From the NCBI RefSeq assembly GCF_050920415.1, contig NZ_CP169309.1: a DNA stretch of 64,000 nucleotides; one strand, given 5' to 3'. The position numbers and the translations under genes were made by a program. How positions within the stretch are numbered: the first letter of the stretch is position 1; each line of letters begins with the position of its first letter. The notes beneath the pieces were generated by a model that worked only from the letters and a program-made list of their open reading frames with translations, was not told the DNA's origin and searched no databases. Below, one piece after another: positions 3,783-44,258 of the stretch. The DNA is from Escherichia coli. GTDB taxonomy: Bacteria > Pseudomonadota > Gammaproteobacteria > Enterobacterales > Enterobacteriaceae.

Positions 3783-4988
3783 ATGACCCTACCAAAAATC
3801 AAACAGGTTCGCGCCTGGTTTACTGGCGGTGCGACAGCAGAAAAAGGCGCTGGCGGCGGTGATTATCACGACCAGGGGGCGAATCACTGGATTGACGATC
3901 ATATTGCCACCCCGATGAGTAAATACCGCGATTACGAGCAGTCACGCCAGTCATTTGGCATTAACGTTCTTGGCACGTTGATTGTTGAAGTCGAAGCAGA
4001 AAACGGCCAGACCGGATTCGCCGTTTCGACAGCCGGTGAAATGGGCTGTTTTATTGTCGAAAAACACCTTAACCGTTTCATTGAGGGTAAATGTGTCAGT
4101 GATATCAAACTGATCCACGATCAAATGCTCAATGCCACCCTGTATTACTCCGGCTCTGGTGGCCTGGTGATGAATACGATTTCCTGTGTCGATCTGGCTC
4201 TGTGGGATCTGTTCGGCAAAGTGGTCGGGCTTCCGGTTTATAAACTTTTAGGCGGCGCAGTTCGTGATGAGATTCAGTTCTACGCCACAGGTGCGCGTCC
4301 GGATCTGGCAAAAGAGATGGGCTTTATCGGTGGCAAAATGCCGACGCACTGGGGGCCACATGATGGCGATGTGGGGATCCGCAAAGATGCCGCTATGGTC
4401 GCGGATATGCGTGAAAAATGCGGTGAGGATTTCTGGTTAATGCTCGACTGCTGGATGAGTCAGGACGTGAACTATGCCACCAAACTGGCCCACGCTTGCG
4501 CGCCCAATAACCTGAAATGGATCGAAGAGTGCCTGCCGCCACAGCAGTATGAAGGTTATCGCGAACTGAAACGCAACGCGCCAGTCGGAATGATGGTCAC
4601 CAGCGGTGAGCATCACGGCACACTGCAATCTTTCCGTACGCTTTCAGAAACCGGTATCGACATTATGCAGCCGGATGTTGGCTGGTGCGGTGGCTTAACC
4701 ACGCTGGTGGAAATTGCCGCAATCGCCAAATCCAGAGGGCAACTGGTGGTGCCGCACGGTTCGTCTGTTTACTCTCACCATGCGGTGATCACCTTCACCA
4801 ATACGCCATTCAGCGAATTCCTGATGACCAGCCCGGATTGTTCAACGATGCGTCCGCAATTTGATCCGATTCTGCTTAATGAGCCAGTGCCGGTGAATGG
4901 TCGTATTCATAAATCAGTGCTTGATAAACCCGGTTTCGGCGTCGAGCTCAATCGTGACTGCAATTTGAAACGCCCCTACAGCCACTAA
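3783..4988 (+). CDS. rhmD: L-rhamnonate dehydratase (enolase superfamily)
   Basis: ORF 3771..4988; start placed at ATG 3783 ([13 protein letters not shown]...) with GGAGA RBS; mandelate racemase/enolase-superfamily fold inferred from the translation. Confidence 0.85.
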
Positions 4989-36841: not shown

Positions 36842-38026
36842 TTAATTCAATCGTTCAATCACCATCGCAATTCCTTGACCGCCGCCAATGCACAACGTTG
36901 CCAGACCCAGCGTTTTATCGCGTGCCTGCATTGCATGTAATAGTGTGACCAGAATACGCGCACCGCTGGCGCCGATAGGATGCCCCAGCGCGATGGCCCC
37001 GCCGTTGACATTCACTTTCTCAGGATCAAAGCCCAGTGTTTTCCCAACGGCAAGGAATTGCGCGGCAAATGCTTCATTGGCTTCGATAAGATCAATGTCT
37101 GCCAGCTGCAGCCCCGCCAGTTGTAACGCTTTTTGCGTGGCAGGCACTGGTCCCATACCCATCAATGCGGGGGGCACGCCGCCGCTGGCATAACTTTTAA
37201 TACGTGCCAGGGGATTCAGGCCTGCTGCCAGCGCCGCGGATTCTTCCATAATCACCAGAGCGGCAGCACCGTCGTTAATACCTGACGCGTTCCCGGCGGT
37301 GACAGTACCTGCTTTATCGAAGGCCGGACGCAATGCAGCCAGAGCTTCTGTAGTAGAATCTGGTTTCGGGAATTCGTCTTGACTGAAGACGAGGGTTTTC
37401 TTCCGGGTGACAACATTTACCGGGACGATTTCGGCTGTAAAAGCACCGGACTCAATTGCGGCAACCGCTTTACGCTGTGAATGTAGCGCCAGTTCATCCT
37501 GCATTTCGCGGGTAATCCCGTACTCCTTAGCCACGTTTTCGGCGGTAATTCCCATATGATAACCATGGGTGGCGCACATCAGGCCATCGCGCAGGATTAC
37601 GTCATAAACCTGTCCGTCTCCCAGACGATAACCCGATCGCGCTTTTGCATCGAGTAAGTAGGGCGCTAAACTCATATTTTCCATACCCCCCGCCACAATG
37701 CTCTGCGCCTGACCTGCCTGAATTGCCTGGGCGGCAAGCGCCACGCTTTTCAGACCCGAACCACACACCTTATTGACCGTGAATCCGCACACCGTTTCGG
37801 CCAGTCCGCTTTTTAACAGTGCCTGACGCGCCGGATTTTGCCCCAGCCCGGCTTGCAACACGTTACCCATAATCACTTCATCGATATGTTGTGAATCGAT
37901 TTTTGCGCGTTCAATAGCGGCCTGAATTACTGTTGCTCCCAGATCGATGGCGCTGGTGGAGGCGAGTGAACCATTAAAACTACCGATGGCAGTACGTACC
38001 GCACTGACGATGACACAATTTTTCAT
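36842..38026 (-). CDS. atoB: Acetyl-CoA acetyltransferase (thiolase II)
   Basis: 394-aa minus-strand ORF; thiolase signatures ([21 protein letters not shown]..., C-terminal CIGGGQG). Confidence 0.93.
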
Positions 38027-38056
38027 TTTATATTCCTTCTGTCTGTAAAGTTGCCG

Positions 38057-39379
38057 TCAGAACAGCGTTAAACCAATGACGAAAATGACGCCGGAGAAGA
38101 GCAGGGCAGTGATGCAATAGCCCATGATGTCGCGGACACCGAGTCCGGCGATTGCCAGTGCTGGCAGCGCCCAGAACGGTTGTGCCATGTTCATCCATTG
38201 CTCGCCGTAGGCGATCGCCATTACCGATTTACCGAGATCGGCTCCCAGCGCCTGGGCTGCGGGTATCACGAAAGGTCCCTGAATAACCCAGTGACCGCCG
38301 CCAGACGGAACGGCGAAGTTAATCAGTGCAGAACTAAAGAAGGTCATTACCGGGAAGGTGTCTTTGTTCGCAACATTGATGAAGAATTCAGTAATGAGTC
38401 CGCCCAGACCGGAGTGCTCCATCATCAGTTGGATCCCGGCGTAGAAGGGGAATTGCACCAGAATACCGGCGGTACTGCGTGCTGCCGCGCTGATAGCACG
38501 CATATAAGCCATTGGCGTTTTATGTAGCAGCAGACCCGCAATCATAAACATCAGGTTGACGGTATTGATGGTGATGTTGAAGCCATGTTCGCTGAAGTAC
38601 ATCGCCAGGTAAGCGATACCGAGTGCGCCGATGATCAACGTCAGGATGCGACTTTCCTCCAGTCGCTCGGATGGTGGGGCATCTTTCGGTAGCTGCTTCT
38701 GAAAATCAGCCTCTTCCATGAGTAGTTTCGGATCGATACTCACCACGTCGGAGGGTTTTGGCATCATCATGCGGGTAATAAATGGCATCACCACAATCAA
38801 TGCCACAGTGATGAAAATGTTAAAACCACTGAACAGAGTATCGCCCACCGGGATAAGCCCGGCGATATGCTCAACCGGATTGCCCGGTGTGGCAGCCAAC
38901 AGAGGCATTGAACCAGAGAAACCGCCACCCCAGGTAAGAAAACCAATGTAGGCGCAGGCAATGAGCAACGGATAATCAGAACCGGGTACTCGCCGGGCGA
39001 CTTCACGGGCGAACATTGCTCCGACAACCAGACCAAATCCCCAGTTGATGACACAAGCGACTGAACCGAAGAAAGTGACCAGCATGACGCCCTGTACGGG
39101 CGTCTTTGCGGCGGAAGCGGCAGTACGCAGCAAGCTTTTCACCGGAGCAGAGCTGGCAAGGGCATGACCGGTAACGATGATAAGCGCCATCTGCATACCG
39201 AACGCCAGCAAGTTCCAGAAACCGTCCCCCCACATTTTCACCATGCTGATCGGCGTTTGTGGTGTTAACCAAAGCGCGATCACGAACGTTAGCAATGTCA
39301 GCAACATGGCAAAGATCAGTGGATCGGGAAGCCACCGGCTGACAAAACGCGTCATAAAACGCGAAATGCGACCAATCAT
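38057..39379 (-). CDS. atoE: Short-chain fatty acid transporter
   Basis: 440-aa polytopic membrane ORF between atoA and atoB; overlaps the atoA stop by 4 nt. Confidence 0.9.
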   Translation of the reverse strand: MIGRISRFMTRFVSRWLPDPLIFAMLLTLLTFVIALWLTPQTPISMVKMWGDGFWNLLAFGMQMALIIVTGHALASSAPVKSLLRTAASAAKTPVQGVMLVTFFGSVACVINWGFGLVVGAMFAREVARRVPGSDYPLLIACAYIGFLTWGGGFSGSMPLLAATPGNPVEHIAGLIPVGDTLFSGFNIFITVALIVVMPFITRMMMPKPSDVVSIDPKLLMEEADFQKQLPKDAPPSERLEESRILTLIIGALGIAYLAMYFSEHGFNITINTVNLMFMIAGLLLHKTPMAYMRAISAAARSTAGILVQFPFYAGIQLMMEHSGLGGLITEFFINVANKDTFPVMTFFSSALINFAVPSGGGHWVIQGPFVIPAAQALGADLGKSVMAIAYGEQWMNMAQPFWALPALAIAGLGVRDIMGYCITALLFSGVIFVIGLTLF

Positions 39380-40026
39380 AAATCACCCCGCTGCGTATTC
39401 AGATCGGCGGCGACTTCAAACTGAGCTTCGGTTTTGGCACGCACGGTGGCTAAATCACACCCGTCGGCAATTTCGGTGAGCCACATTTTGCCGTCAATGA
39501 AACGAAAGACTGCCAGTTCAGTGACCAGCATATGCACCGCGTGTTGCGCAGTGAGCGGCATTGTGCAGCGGCGCAAAATTTTTGCTGAACCATCTTTGGC
39601 GCAATGTTCCATGGCAATGATCACTTTGCGTGCCCCGGTCACCAGATCCATCGCGCCACCCATACCGGGCACCATTTTTCCAGGCACTACCCAGTTCGCG
39701 AGGTTGGCTTCTTCGTCTACCTGCAAACCACCGAGTACGCAGGCATCAATATGACCACCACGAATCAGCGCAAACGACATTGCGCTGTCGAACATCGCTG
39801 CGCCGGGTAAAATGCCGCATGGTTGCCCGCCAGCGTTCACCAGATCTGGATGCGCTGTAGTGACTGGGCCTAAACCGAGGAAGCCATTTTCCGATTGCAG
39901 AGTGATATGAATATCCTCCGGTAAATAATTGGCGACCATTGTGGGTAAACCGATCCCTAAGTTAACGATGTCACCATCACGAAGCTCTTGCGCCACACGG
40001 CGTGCAATACGTTGTTTCGCATCCAT
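39376..40026 (-). CDS. atoA: Acetate CoA-transferase beta subunit
   Basis: 216-aa ORF with the CoA-transferase family I beta-subunit pattern (…SENG…). Confidence 0.92.
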   Translation of the reverse strand: MDAKQRIARRVAQELRDGDIVNLGIGLPTMVANYLPEDIHITLQSENGFLGLGPVTTAHPDLVNAGGQPCGILPGAAMFDSAMSFALIRGGHIDACVLGGLQVDEEANLANWVVPGKMVPGMGGAMDLVTGARKVIIAMEHCAKDGSAKILRRCTMPLTAQHAVHMLVTELAVFRFIDGKMWLTEIADGCDLATVRAKTEAQFEVAADLNTQRGDL

Positions 40027-40688
40027 TATTTGCTCTCCTGTGAAACGATGATGTGGTCGATAACGGCACCAGGGGTGACAATATGGTCAGGTTGCAGTTC
40101 GCCGGTTTCGACCAGTTCATCTGGCTCCACCAGCGTGATATCAGCCGCAAGGGCAATCAGGGGGTTAAAGTTGCGGGCGCTAAGTTGGTAGGTCAGGTTG
40201 CCAAGTGTGTCGCAACGATGGGCGCGAATGAGCGCCAGGTCGGCGCGCAGTGGACGTTCAAGCAGCCAGGTTTTACCGTCGAGTGTCAGCGTCTGTTTGC
40301 CTTCCTCTACGACGGTGCCGACACCAGTTGGCGTGAGAAAACCACCAAGTCCAGCTCCACCACAGCGAATTTGCTCAATCAATGTACCTTGCGGTACGAG
40401 AACGACCTCCATTTCGCCAGAAATCATGCGCCGTCCGGTTTCCGGGTTGGTGCCGATATGTGAAGCAATTACTTTGCGGACTCGACCATTGACGATGAGC
40501 GGACCGATGCCGGTATCAACAAACGCGGTATCATTGGCTATCAATGTCAGGTCGCGAACACCAGATTCCAGTAATGCTTCCACCAGGCGGGATGGAGTGC
40601 CAATTCCCATAAATCCGCCCACCATGATGGTCATGCCGTCACGAAAGAAGCTGGAGGCGTCTTGTAATGTCATCAATTTTGTTTTCAT
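40026..40688 (-). CDS. atoD: Acetate CoA-transferase alpha subunit
   Basis: 220-aa ORF; CoA-transferase alpha-subunit N-terminus ([11 protein letters not shown]...GGFMGIGTP). Confidence 0.92.
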
Positions 40689-40733
40689 TATTTATCCCTC
40701 TTGCATACACCGTTGTGGGTACAGTCAGGGAAT

Positions 40734-40750
40734 AGCAAGGGGAGTGCCAG
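40734..40750 (-). promoter_or_regulatory. Sigma-54 (-24/-12) promoter of atoDAEB
   Basis: Minus strand reads cTGGCACtccccTTGCt, matching the sigma-54 consensus TGGCAC-N5-TTGCW; about 45 nt upstream of the atoD start; atoC encodes a sigma-54 activator. Confidence 0.75.
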
Positions 40751-40832
40751 AATGAAAATGTTTGATATTGTTTTTTAACTTATTGAATAGTAAAGAATAA
40801 ATAAGGTGGGGATTAAGAGGTTGAATGAACGG

Positions 40833-40871
40833 CTATGCAGAAATTTGCGCACTGTGCAAATTTCTGCATAG
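40833..40871. promoter_or_regulatory. Near-perfect palindrome; candidate AtoC enhancer (UAS) for the ato promoter
   Basis: ctatgcagaaatttgcgcactgtgcaaatttctgcatag is an almost perfect 39-bp inverted repeat about 90-130 nt upstream of the sigma-54 promoter, abutting the atoC 3' end. Confidence 0.65.
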
Positions 40872-40883
40872 CAAGTTTTGGCG

Positions 40884-42269
40884 TTATACATCCGCCGGAT
40901 CGATACCGTATTCCTGGAGTTTATACATCAATGCACGGCGACTGATGCCCAGCATTAAAGCAGTGCGGGTTCGGTTTCCTTCTTGTTGTTCCAGCACTTC
41001 CATAATGATGCGTTTTTCGACGCGTTTAATTTCCTCTTTTAAATTACGCTCACCGACAGGGGCTGTTTTTGCTTCACCAGCACTACAGACTGGCTGACGA
41101 ATCTGCGGCGGAAGATCCTCAGAAAAAATGATCGGGCCTGAATTCATCACGACGGCGCGTTCAATAACGTTGGAAAGCTCTCGAATATTTCCCGGCCATG
41201 ACCATGCGGTAAGCAGTGACATTGCCATCGGATCGATGTCGATAATATCGCGCTGATTCTCACTACTGAATTTTTGCAAAAAGTGATTAGCTAACAGGGA
41301 AATATCTTCCCGGCGATCGCGCAGAGGCGGCAGTATTAAATGAATAACGTTAAGGCGATAAAAGAGATCTTCACGGAATGTGCCTTCTTTCACCATTGCC
41401 TGCAAGTCGCGGTTGGTGGCAGCAATGATGCGGATATCAACTTTTATGGTCTGATGGCCGCCAATCCGTTCAAATTCCCGTTCCTGCAGAATGCGTAGTA
41501 ATTTGGCTTGCAGTACCAGCGGCATTTCGCCAATTTCGTCGAGGAGCAGAGTACCTTCGTTGGCACGTTCAAATAATCCCTGACGCAAGGTTTGTGCACC
41601 AGTAAATGCGCCTTTTTCATGACCAAACAGTTCACTTTCGAGCAACGATTCCGGCAGTGCCGCGCAGTTGACTTTAATGAACGGCCCCTTTGCCCGCCGC
41701 GAATTGTAGTGAATCGCTCTGGCAATCAACTCTTTCCCGGTGCCGCTTTCACCGCTAATCAAGACGCTGGCCTGAGAAAGGGCAATTTTGGCGGTGTCTT
41801 TGCAGATGTCCATCATCGCCGGGCTGTTGGTGAGAATGTGCCCCCATTGCCAGCTGGTGCTAAGTGCCTGGTGCAGATGACGGATCTCTTTTTTCATTGA
41901 CTGGAGTTGTAAAGCGCGCTGAACGATTAAATTCAACTCATCGAGATCAAACGGTTTGATAACATAGTCGAAGGCTCCGCAGCGTAGTGCTTCGACGGCG
42001 GTTTCCACTTCAGCATAGGCCGTCATCAGAATAACGGGTGTCCGTGTCTCATGGCTGCGCATCTCCTTTAGTGCCTTGATGCCGTCCATCTCTGGCATGC
42101 GGATATCCATCAACACCACGTCAGGGTGAATATCGGCAAACAGGTGTAATGCTGTGCGCCCGTTGTTCGCACAATGTGTTTCGAATCCTTGAAGTGCAAA
42201 AGCGGTGCTCAGCATACGGCGAACATTATCTTCATCATCCACAATAAGGATGCGATTAATAGCAGTCAT
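40884..42269 (-). CDS. atoC: Sigma-54-dependent response regulator AtoC (NtrC family)
   Basis: 461-aa ORF: receiver domain (ILIVDDEDNVRRML...D), AAA+ sigma-54 interaction domain (GESGTGKE Walker A, GAFTGA) and C-terminal HTH. Confidence 0.93.
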   Translation of the reverse strand: MTAINRILIVDDEDNVRRMLSTAFALQGFETHCANNGRTALHLFADIHPDVVLMDIRMPEMDGIKALKEMRSHETRTPVILMTAYAEVETAVEALRCGAFDYVIKPFDLDELNLIVQRALQLQSMKKEIRHLHQALSTSWQWGHILTNSPAMMDICKDTAKIALSQASVLISGESGTGKELIARAIHYNSRRAKGPFIKVNCAALPESLLESELFGHEKGAFTGAQTLRQGLFERANEGTLLLDEIGEMPLVLQAKLLRILQEREFERIGGHQTIKVDIRIIAATNRDLQAMVKEGTFREDLFYRLNVIHLILPPLRDRREDISLLANHFLQKFSSENQRDIIDIDPMAMSLLTAWSWPGNIRELSNVIERAVVMNSGPIIFSEDLPPQIRQPVCSAGEAKTAPVGERNLKEEIKRVEKRIIMEVLEQQEGNRTRTALMLGISRRALMYKLQEYGIDPADV

Positions 42270-44092
42270 ACAGTCTGATTTCCCTGCGGGTTGATCGGTA
42301 AAATAAGCGTGAAGGTTGCGCCGTAGCCCGGCAAACTGGCGACGCGAATATCACCCTGATGGGCATTAATGATGCGTTGACTTAACGCCAGACCAAGCCC
42401 GGTTCCTGAGGCTTTGGTAGTGAAAAAGGGATCGAAGATCTTTTTTTGCAGCGAGAGATCAATGCCACTGCCGTTGTCCTCTATCGAAATGGCCTGTTGT
42501 GAGTCGCTATACTGCCAGGTTCGAATGCGAATTTTCCCTCGTGCACTGATAGCCTGGACGGCATTGATCAGGATATTCAGTAGTACCTGTTTGAGCAGTT
42601 CACGATCGGCGCTAATCGGGCTTAATTCATTATCCAGTTCGCTTATGAAGTCGACCCGCGCTTGTACGCCGGCGGTTTGTACCAGTACCAGAGTTTCTTC
42701 AACCAATGCATTGAGGCTGACTTGTTGCCATTGACTGTGGCGTGGGCGTGAAAATTCGAGCAATTGCTGAATAACTTTGTTAATTGAATCGATTTCTTTG
42801 AGTACTACGGACAGATATTCCTGATGTATTGGGTCACTGGTTTGTTGGCGCAAGATCTGTACATAACCACGAATAGCCGTTAACGGATTACGTACTTCAT
42901 GCGCCACGCCAGCCATCAGCTCACCCAGTGTGGCGAGGCGTTCAGCTTGCGCCATGCGGCGTTGGGTTTCTTTGCGGGCAGTTAAATCAGAGAAAATCAC
43001 CAAAGCACCAATCATTTCACCATGCGTATTATGAATACGACTGGTAGTGACACTGAGTTCAATGGTGCGCTCACGGCCTGGAAAACTGATCTCCAGCGCC
43101 ACATGTTCGGTGCCATGTTCCAGCGTATCCAGTACTGGACTGTAGAACGGAGTATTGTCGAACAACATGGAGTAAGGCTGCCCTACCAATTCATGACGTT
43201 GATAGCCAGTGATGACTTCTGCTGCCGGGTTCATGGTGGTTACATCACCCTGGCGGTCAATGGCAATGACGCCATCGGCAGCGTTTTCAATAATCAGATC
43301 GTTAAGTGTTCGCGTTTCACGCAGTGCCTGGGCGAGGTTGTTGACACTCTGACTAATTTGCCCCATTTCACCGGGCAATTGTGGTAATCGAGTGGGAATA
43401 TTTTGCGCCAGAGTCGCGAGACCATCGGTGATGATATCTATATTGGCGCTCAGGCGACGGGAGAAAAGGACAATCAACAGCAGGCTTATCAGCAAACCGG
43501 CGGTGAGCACAATGATAATCCTCACATCCATTTTCCAGGCCTGGCGGCGAATATCTTCGGTTAATTCATTGGCCCAGATATAGCCGAGGATTTCACCATT
43601 ACGCTCAATGGGGATCATTGAATTCAAAATATCGCCGCGCACCTGCCTGCCTGAATAAATCAAAGGAGTATTTGTACGCATGACTTCGCGACCAGGGTGA
43701 TCTGCGGCAATAGTAACGCCCACATTATTCTGATACAGCGCTGAAGGCGCGTAAGTGATTATCGCATCCAGCGTTTTGTTGTAATAACCAGCGCCTATGC
43801 CAGGAAAGGCGTGAGTGATATTTTCAGTAATGGGAGCAAGTTCTGCATTCAGTGCGTGGATTCGCTCCTCACGTGGTAAGTCGTTGTAGAGATCGTAGCG
43901 ATCGCCTAGCGCCTGATTAAGCAGGTTGACCACGGCAGAAAGTTTTTTCTCTTTTTCAGATAAGACTGCTGAACGTCCTTCCGTTTCTACGATATAACCA
44001 ATAGTAAGCGTTGGGACAATGACCATCAGGATTGCCATCAGGATCATTTGATTGCGTAAGCGGCGTGGATAAATCCACTTCATATAATGCAT
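42266..44092 (-). CDS. atoS: Sensor histidine kinase AtoS
   Basis: ORF 42266..44104; start placed at ATG 44092 (MHYMKWIYPRRLRNQMILMAILMV...); H-box (HEVRNPLTAIRG), PAS-like segment and HATPase motifs; overlaps atoC start by 4 nt. Confidence 0.9.
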   Translation of the reverse strand: MHYMKWIYPRRLRNQMILMAILMVIVPTLTIGYIVETEGRSAVLSEKEKKLSAVVNLLNQALGDRYDLYNDLPREERIHALNAELAPITENITHAFPGIGAGYYNKTLDAIITYAPSALYQNNVGVTIAADHPGREVMRTNTPLIYSGRQVRGDILNSMIPIERNGEILGYIWANELTEDIRRQAWKMDVRIIIVLTAGLLISLLLIVLFSRRLSANIDIITDGLATLAQNIPTRLPQLPGEMGQISQSVNNLAQALRETRTLNDLIIENAADGVIAIDRQGDVTTMNPAAEVITGYQRHELVGQPYSMLFDNTPFYSPVLDTLEHGTEHVALEISFPGRERTIELSVTTSRIHNTHGEMIGALVIFSDLTARKETQRRMAQAERLATLGELMAGVAHEVRNPLTAIRGYVQILRQQTSDPIHQEYLSVVLKEIDSINKVIQQLLEFSRPRHSQWQQVSLNALVEETLVLVQTAGVQARVDFISELDNELSPISADRELLKQVLLNILINAVQAISARGKIRIRTWQYSDSQQAISIEDNGSGIDLSLQKKIFDPFFTTKASGTGLGLALSQRIINAHQGDIRVASLPGYGATFTLILPINPQGNQTV

Positions 44093-44258
44093 GCTGAATC
44101 CCACTAGTCTTGTCCGGTATATGACGATTATCAGAGGTTAAGGTGATGATTTCTCGGCGGTGTATCATATTCCAGAGAAGAGAGAACATTGCGGTAACAC
44201 GCTTTTACCGCTACCTTAACCACACTCCATCGGTCACCTGAGGCGGAGCTTCGCCCCT

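Follow-up and report, generated by a model that had tools for sequence, protein, structure and literature searches.

Control region of the atoDAEB operon in an Escherichia coli genome: an AtoC-binding palindrome upstream of a sigma-54 promoter

The DNA between atoC and atoD in this Escherichia coli genome is, with very high confidence, the control region of the atoDAEB operon, in which an AtoC-binding palindrome is followed ~100 bp downstream by a sigma-54 promoter, an arrangement that has already been characterised in E. coli. None of the results speaks against this reading. The palindrome, the promoter and the acetoacetate response of atoDAEB are known from work on E. coli K-12 published between 2007 and 2015. 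The analysis of the window (the whole 64 kb stretch of DNA) is therefore of use chiefly as a positive control, in which a reading of the sequence alone recovered a validated enhancer-promoter pair with correct coordinates. The analysis makes some minor additions: the site resolves into four TGCGCA-like hexamers, whose conservation reaches well outside the enterics; enteric loci keep the enhancer-to-promoter distance within 3 bp even as the sequence of the spacer changes; and the spacer allele of this strain is rare. Possible users are builders of acetoacetate biosensors and annotators of ato loci in other phyla.

The ato locus and the elements of its control region

The gene order rcsC / atoS-atoC / atoDAEB / yfaP is that of annotated E. 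coli. The genes of the regulatory pair and of the operon are located as follows:

42266..44092, minus strand: atoS; NCBIfam NF008468 AtoS equivalog, 988.7 bits against a cut-off of 646
40884..42269, minus strand: atoC, a sigma-54-dependent response regulator (enhancer-binding protein) of 461 aa; NCBIfam NF008469 AtoC equivalog, 1002.6 bits against a cut-off of 714
36842..40688, minus strand: atoDAEB operon, from ORFs, NCBIfam matches and E. coli annotations
40026-40688, minus strand: atoD, with its ATG at 40688; passes the AtoD equivalog (444.2 bits against a cut-off of 315)
39376-40026, minus strand: atoA; the product matches TIGR02428
38057-39379, minus strand: atoE; the product matches TIGR00366
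36842-38026, minus strand: atoB; the product matches thiolase families

The products of atoDAEB are the alpha and beta subunits of acetate/acetoacetate CoA-transferase, a short-chain fatty acid transporter and an acetyl-CoA acetyltransferase. The gene atoS bears this name in the records of identical or near-identical E. coli. A mechanical ORF call starts it from a GTG at 44104 (612 aa), and the 5' end is presumed to lie at 44092 on the basis of the 608-aa K-12 annotation. The 4-nt overlap of atoS and atoC (42266-42269) suggests that the two genes are translationally coupled. AtoC contains the GAFTGA motif for contact with sigma-54 and a Fis-type helix-turn-helix at its C-terminus. It is identical to K-12 AtoC at 459/461 positions (99.6 %), with GAFTGA seen in the alignment.

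The minus strand downstream of atoC, which ends with the stop codon TAA at 40886-40884, carries in succession an 11-nt stretch, the palindrome, an A/T-rich spacer of ~82 bp, the promoter and the atoD ATG. The control elements are:

40832..40872, no strand: AtoC enhancer (upstream activating sequence), a 41-bp palindrome; from repeat statistics and published AtoC half-sites
40776..40788, minus strand: IHF-like box ATTCAATAAGTTA (also written ATTCAAnnnnnTTA); matches the IHF consensus WATCAANNNNTTR at 8/9 specified positions
40734..40750, minus strand: sigma-54 promoter cTGGCACtccccTTGCt, with the -24 GG at 40748/40747 and the -12 GC at 40736/40735
40722..40726, minus strand: predicted atoDAEB transcription start; the -12 geometry gives 40723, and nearby purines are G40726, A40725 and G40722
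40689..40721, minus strand: atoD leader, highly conserved, with the Shine-Dalgarno sequence GAGGG at 40700..40696 and GTACCCA at 40722..40716

The palindrome and the published AtoC site

The palindrome is formed by two arms of 20 nt each, 40832-40851 and 40853-40872, that lie 1 nt apart and are complementary at 19/20 positions (95 %). On the minus strand, it reads GCTATGCAGAAATTTGCACA-G-TGCGCAAATTTCTGCATAGC at 40872..40832, which can be divided as GC [TATGCA] GAAATT [TGCACA] G [TGCGCA] AATTTC [TGCATA] GC. The sole mismatch between the arms, A40855 against C40849 in minus-strand letters, is the difference between the inner hexamers TGCACA and TGCGCA. No other inverted repeat with 20-nt arms and at least 17/20 matches occurs in the 64 kb window, and in 20 simulated 64 kb windows (first-order Markov) the best inverted repeats reach just 14-16 of 20.

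The original prediction had described a near-perfect palindrome of 39 bp at 40833-40871. This is correct, and a further G:C pair at either end brings the length to 41 bp. The predicted position, about 100 bp upstream of the promoter, also holds, with ~104 bp between the palindrome centre (40852) and the -24 GG. It had further been stated that atoC ends practically inside the enhancer of its own target. The closeness of the two stands, but the gene does not end inside the enhancer in this strain, where a gap of 11 nt separates the atoC TAA from the palindrome.

The proposal that the palindrome is the AtoC enhancer agrees with published data, as the arms correspond to the known AtoC half-sites with 39/40 bases identical (PMC3118216). 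That paper (Pilalis et al. 2011), in summarising Matta et al. 2007 (J Bacteriol 189:6324), describes the AtoC site as an inverted palindrome of 40 bp, verified by experiment, in which two 20-bp sites lie upstream of the start of atoDAEB. It also reports, from promoter mutants in K-12, that both acetoacetate inducibility and the binding of AtoC are controlled by this site, and that binding in K-12 is confirmed in vivo by ChIP and in vitro by EMSA (PMC3118216). According to Table 5 of the paper (PMC3118216), one K-12 half-site is GCTATGCAGAAATTTGCACA, which occupies -184..-165 relative to the atoD start, and its opposite-strand partner GCTATGCAGAAAATTGCGCA occupies -163..-144. Counted from the ATG at 40688, these intervals map exactly to 40872..40853 and 40851..40832, and the comparison with published site data that had been suggested thus ends in exact coincidence of the half-site positions. 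The left arm is the published GCTATGCAGAAATTTGCACA, and the right arm differs from GCTATGCAGAAAATTGCGCA at 1/20 positions. This near-identity to K-12 supports the predicted binding of AtoC to 40832-40872 in the present allele. In 2007, Matta and co-workers are said to have mapped by DNase I footprinting a protected stretch from -146 to -107 relative to the start site, which presumably would fit an atoDAEB start at ~40726.

Promoter, spacer and leader

On the minus strand, c-TGGCAC-tcccc-TTGC-t is found at 40750..40734, with TGGCAC-N5-TTGCT at 40749..40734; from the C of the -12 GC to the atoD ATG the distance is 47 nt. An exact search of the window for TGGCACNNNNNTTGCW finds it once, where 0.12 matches are expected, and 11/100 shuffles contain it at least once. 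When one mismatch is allowed, the 4 matches found against 3.6 expected are at chance level. Taken alone, the sigma-54 motif is only mildly unlikely to occur by chance, and the promoter call is convincing because of its position and conservation rather than because of the motif itself. TGGCAY-N5-TTGCW is present in 12/12 loci compared, and a cognate enhancer-binding protein with GAFTGA, AtoC, is encoded immediately upstream. A sigma-70-like match at 40762-40791 of the plus strand is no more than chance would give (1 found against 1.0 expected).

Sigma-54 ChIP-seq in K-12 lists for atoD the site OS21 with the motif CTGGCACTCCCCTTGCT, a row value of 35 and the mark C (PMC4591121). The value is read here as the predicted distance from the start to the gene, and the mark as denoting a previously confirmed site. 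The promoter 17-mer CTGGCACTCCCCTTGCT at 40750..40734 is identical to the OS21 motif (PMC4591121), and this identity supports the predicted occupancy of the promoter by sigma-54 holoenzyme in this strain. In addition, an RpoN gSELEX peak has been reported in the atoC>atoD spacer (PMC8743547). The minus-strand TGGCAC-N5-TTGC motif proposed upstream of atoD is present and is the sole exact match in 64 kb. With the OS21 value taken as the distance to atoD, the transcription start is predicted near 40723 (PMC4591121), close to the ~40720 originally given.

The spacer between enhancer and promoter contains the IHF-like box, with its centre ~35 bp upstream of the -24 element. In the alignment of Escherichia and Citrobacter loci, the box stands out as conserved while the rest of the spacer has diverged, and the invariant columns T110, A112, A113, T119 and A120 coincide with positions specified by the IHF consensus. 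Bending of the spacer by IHF at the ATTCAATAAGTTA box is therefore probable on sequence grounds. IHF is reportedly required for the induction of atoDAEB, a result that Matta and co-workers are said to have obtained in 2007. IHF-assisted sigma-54 promoters include nifH, Pu and glnHp2. The ato region resembles these in having an A/T-rich spacer with an IHF-consensus-like box between enhancer and promoter; the ato box, with 8/9 consensus positions, is a putative IHF site by its sequence.

The following course of activation is proposed. AtoS would sense acetoacetate and phosphorylate AtoC, phospho-AtoC would bind the 41-bp palindrome at 40832-40872, and sigma-54 RNA polymerase would occupy TGGCAC-N5-TTGCT at 40749-40734 as a closed complex, all of which is shown or has been published for the near-identical K-12 sequence. 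The later steps follow what is general for the activator family. AtoC on the enhancer would assemble into an active AAA+ oligomer, the ~82-bp A/T-rich spacer would loop, probably bent by IHF at ATTCAATAAGTTA, and the GAFTGA loops of AtoC would contact sigma-54, with ATP hydrolysis opening the promoter. Transcription would then start near 40723 and yield a leader of ~35 nt before the atoD ATG at 40688.

The paradigm of a sigma-54 enhancer is the NtrC enhancer of glnAp2 in E. coli and Salmonella, which has two adjacent dimer sites. The ato system shares with it a response-regulator AAA+ activator with a Fis-type helix-turn-helix, activation by DNA looping, paired dyad sites ~100-140 bp upstream of a -24/-12 promoter and half-site cores that are TGCA(C)-like. 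It differs in the regulator and the signal (acetoacetate via AtoS), in the two AtoC dyads being contiguous and forming one 41-bp palindrome, and in the position of the enhancer directly after the stop codon of the regulator's own gene.

The first base of GTACCCA in the atoD leader lies at the edge of the predicted-start interval. The leader RNA has no significant predicted fold (z-score +0.70). The minus-strand CTGTACCC (40724..40717) in this leader is perfectly complementary over 8 nt to nt 4-11 of Spot 42 (spf, L154), and the match overlaps the invariant GTACCC. A passage of PMC7618054 that cites Beisel et al. 2012 reports atoD as a Spot 42 target. The match is weak, since the longest perfect complementarity of 8 nt is reached by 123/2000 shuffles. 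As for the global duplex energy between Spot 42 and the atoD leader, 276/500 shuffled leaders are at least as good.

Conservation, hexamer architecture and alternative readings

Compared with the ato region of K-12, the window has the same locus, the same gene order, the same distances of the half-sites to the atoD ATG and an identical sigma-54 17-mer. The 9-kb locus is 96.8 % identical to K-12, and its lowest 100-nt bin, at 79 %, is 40835-40736 in the spacer, where ~20 substitutions fall in a loop region of roughly 80 bp. The palindrome, the promoter and the leader are nearly invariant. One base differs in the spacer of the right arm, which is AAATTT here and AATTTT in K-12, and this change makes the palindrome more symmetric in the present strain (19/20 compared to 18/20). 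The promoter-proximal half of the spacer is closer to a divergent Escherichia locus (L003) than to K-12. With a 401-bp query (40600-41000), at least 99 % identity to this atoC-atoD intergenic allele is found in 4 of the 3924 matching complete E. coli genomes, making the allele rare. The query is 90-95 % identical in 3907 of the 3924 and has no match in 1502 of 5426 genomes. That the window might come from a divergent species, as the 90-95 % identity of the query to most E. coli could suggest, was considered and rejected, because AtoC matches the K-12 protein at 99.6 % and it is mainly the spacer that has diverged.

Scanning genomes with AtoC yielded one further Escherichia locus (L003) and five from Citrobacter (L004-L008). 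Conserved islands in Escherichia and Citrobacter are the palindrome, the IHF-like box, the -24/-12 elements and the leader with its GTACCCA and its Shine-Dalgarno sequence. The spacer from palindrome to promoter has drifted, with the exception of the IHF-like box. In each of the 8 enteric loci, the enhancer centre lies 103.5-106.5 bp from the GG, and the first hexamer follows the stop codon at a distance of 13 nt, although the intervening bases differ.

Four distant atoSC-ato loci, with AtoC proteins that are 55-57 % identical, extend the comparison: two from a Nitrospiraceae MAG lineage (L009 and L112), one from a Deltaproteobacteria MAG (L010) and one on a metagenome contig (L093). Their gene order is atoS-atoC followed by atoD-atoA or a transporter gene. 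AtoS, AtoC and AtoD of L009 pass the NCBIfam cut-offs. In L010, AtoS passes its cut-off and AtoC scores 713.1 against 714. The identities in L093 and L112 are given by tblastn matches only, which in L093 place atoD, atoA and atoE downstream. All four loci carry [AGCGCA]-N6-[TGCRYA]-GG-[TGCGCA]-N6-[WGCRYA], with the motif starting 6 nt past the atoC stop or overlapping the stop by 2 nt. TGGCAY-N5-TTGCT follows the enhancer, its GG lying 82-128 bp downstream of the enhancer centre. The complementarity between the arms is down to 10-14 of 18. The AtoC C-terminal helix-turn-helix segment NR..TA..LGISRR.L.YKLQEY.I is invariant across the compared lineages.

Over the enteric and distant loci together, the GG is 82-84, 103.5-106.5 or 128 bp away from the enhancer centre depending on the lineage, with steps of about two helical turns among the few lineages available. 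In L010 (about 4372-4410) and L093 (8181-8219), the atoC stop TAG overlaps the first hexamer AGCGCA by 2 nt, and there the regulator gene literally ends within the enhancer of its target.

Each 20-bp arm of the palindrome has an internal dyad symmetry of its own, with a pair of TGCGCA-like hexamers around a 6-bp A/T-rich spacer. The site can be written as [TATGCA]-N6-[TGCACA]-G-[TGCGCA]-N6-[TGCATA]. In enterics, only the central base and the N6 spacers vary, and all hexamers are the same in 7/8 loci; the exception is TGCCTA in one Citrobacter locus. The asymmetry of the inner hexamers, TGCACA and TGCGCA (40855 / 40849), is unchanged in all 8 Escherichia and Citrobacter loci. This invariance suggests that the imperfection of the palindrome is itself conserved and does not reflect random decay. 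AtoC would make its base-specific contacts with the four TGCGCA-like hexamers, of which each arm holds two at a centre-to-centre distance of 12 bp. On this comparison, what is conserved is a set of predicted protein-contact hexamers and not a hairpin. The conservation of these hexamers across lineages, in the distant ones of which the hairpin is not kept, argues for two adjacent AtoC-dimer sites, as in NtrC-type enhancers, a reading that is drawn from the same sequences that it describes.

It is very unlikely that the palindrome acts mainly as RNA, as a 3' hairpin of the atoSC mRNA that terminates transcription or protects from 3' exonucleases, with its likeness to an enhancer being secondary. 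Such a role would suit its start 11 nt past the atoC stop codon, its fold of -33.4 kcal/mol (z = -6.2), with the Citrobacter version folding equally well, and the lack of any other terminator-like site within 40500-41100. However, the stem is followed by CCGUUCAUUCAACC and not by a U-tract, for which reason the palindrome does not qualify as an intrinsic (Rho-independent) terminator; none was found between atoC and atoD (40500-41100). Furthermore, the distant orthologs keep the hexamers while the complementarity of the arms falls, and the L093 region is without a significant fold (z = -0.47). A search of Rfam gave no family at gathering score, with mir-19 (23.7 bits against 50) and the flavivirus CRE (21 against 41) below threshold. 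In K-12, AtoC binds this DNA, which is needed for induction according to PMC3118216. An RNA hairpin or terminator was accordingly rejected as the conserved function, given the missing U-tract, the loss of the hairpin in distant orthologs and the absence of an Rfam match. In enterics, an RNA role may be an extra property besides that of the enhancer. The chance that both features are accidental matches in A/T-rich intergenic DNA, without a regulatory role, is next to nil. The promoter motif could arise in this way, as the exact sigma-54 pattern appears in 11/100 shuffled windows and matches with one mismatch occur at chance frequency. The palindrome, in contrast, exceeds all 20 simulations by at least 3 matches, both elements coincide with experimentally mapped K-12 sites, and both are conserved in position and sequence in 12/12 loci while the intervening DNA has diverged. 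The conservation and the published K-12 binding data effectively refute chance.

A further proposal supplements the enhancer reading and does not replace it. AtoC bound just past its own stop codon could act as a roadblock against read-through from atoSC into atoDAEB, with the tight spacing being selected. This is rather unlikely, although it would account for the distance from the stop to the first hexamer being fixed at 13 nt in Escherichia and Citrobacter and at +6 or -2 nt in distant lineages (-2 being an overlap with the stop codon), and for the lack of an intrinsic terminator between atoC and atoD. Compact spacing may instead reflect a small intergenic region and shared ancestry, and only about three independent distant lineages are seen. 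Similarly doubtful is the broader idea that an enhancer at or over the atoC stop is an ancient selected architecture, in which the four hexamers both activate the sigma-54 promoter and insulate atoSC from the catabolic operon. If true, insulation would be achieved via a roadblock of bound AtoC or, in enterics, via the RNA hairpin encoded by the palindrome. The architecture is seen in Enterobacteriaceae, one Nitrospiraceae MAG and Deltaproteobacteria-type MAGs.

A scan of metagenome contigs with the four-hexamer pattern of the AtoC enhancer gave 72 matches, mostly simple or tandem repeats or matches in unrelated contexts. Only L093 and L112 were junctions of an atoC stop, an enhancer, a sigma-54 promoter and atoD-atoA. 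The scan adds these two loci and is no clean independent test, because the pattern is too periodic and degenerate. Some of the matches adjoin sigma-54-like -24/-12 sequences, such as TTGGCATGATTCTTGCA in L098, or other NtrC-family genes. These lie in L098 (1869-2010), L126 (minus strand, near 826-862), L145 (minus strand, near 1159-1195), L090 and L142, and probably serve as enhancers for different activators whose half-sites are of the TGCRCA type.
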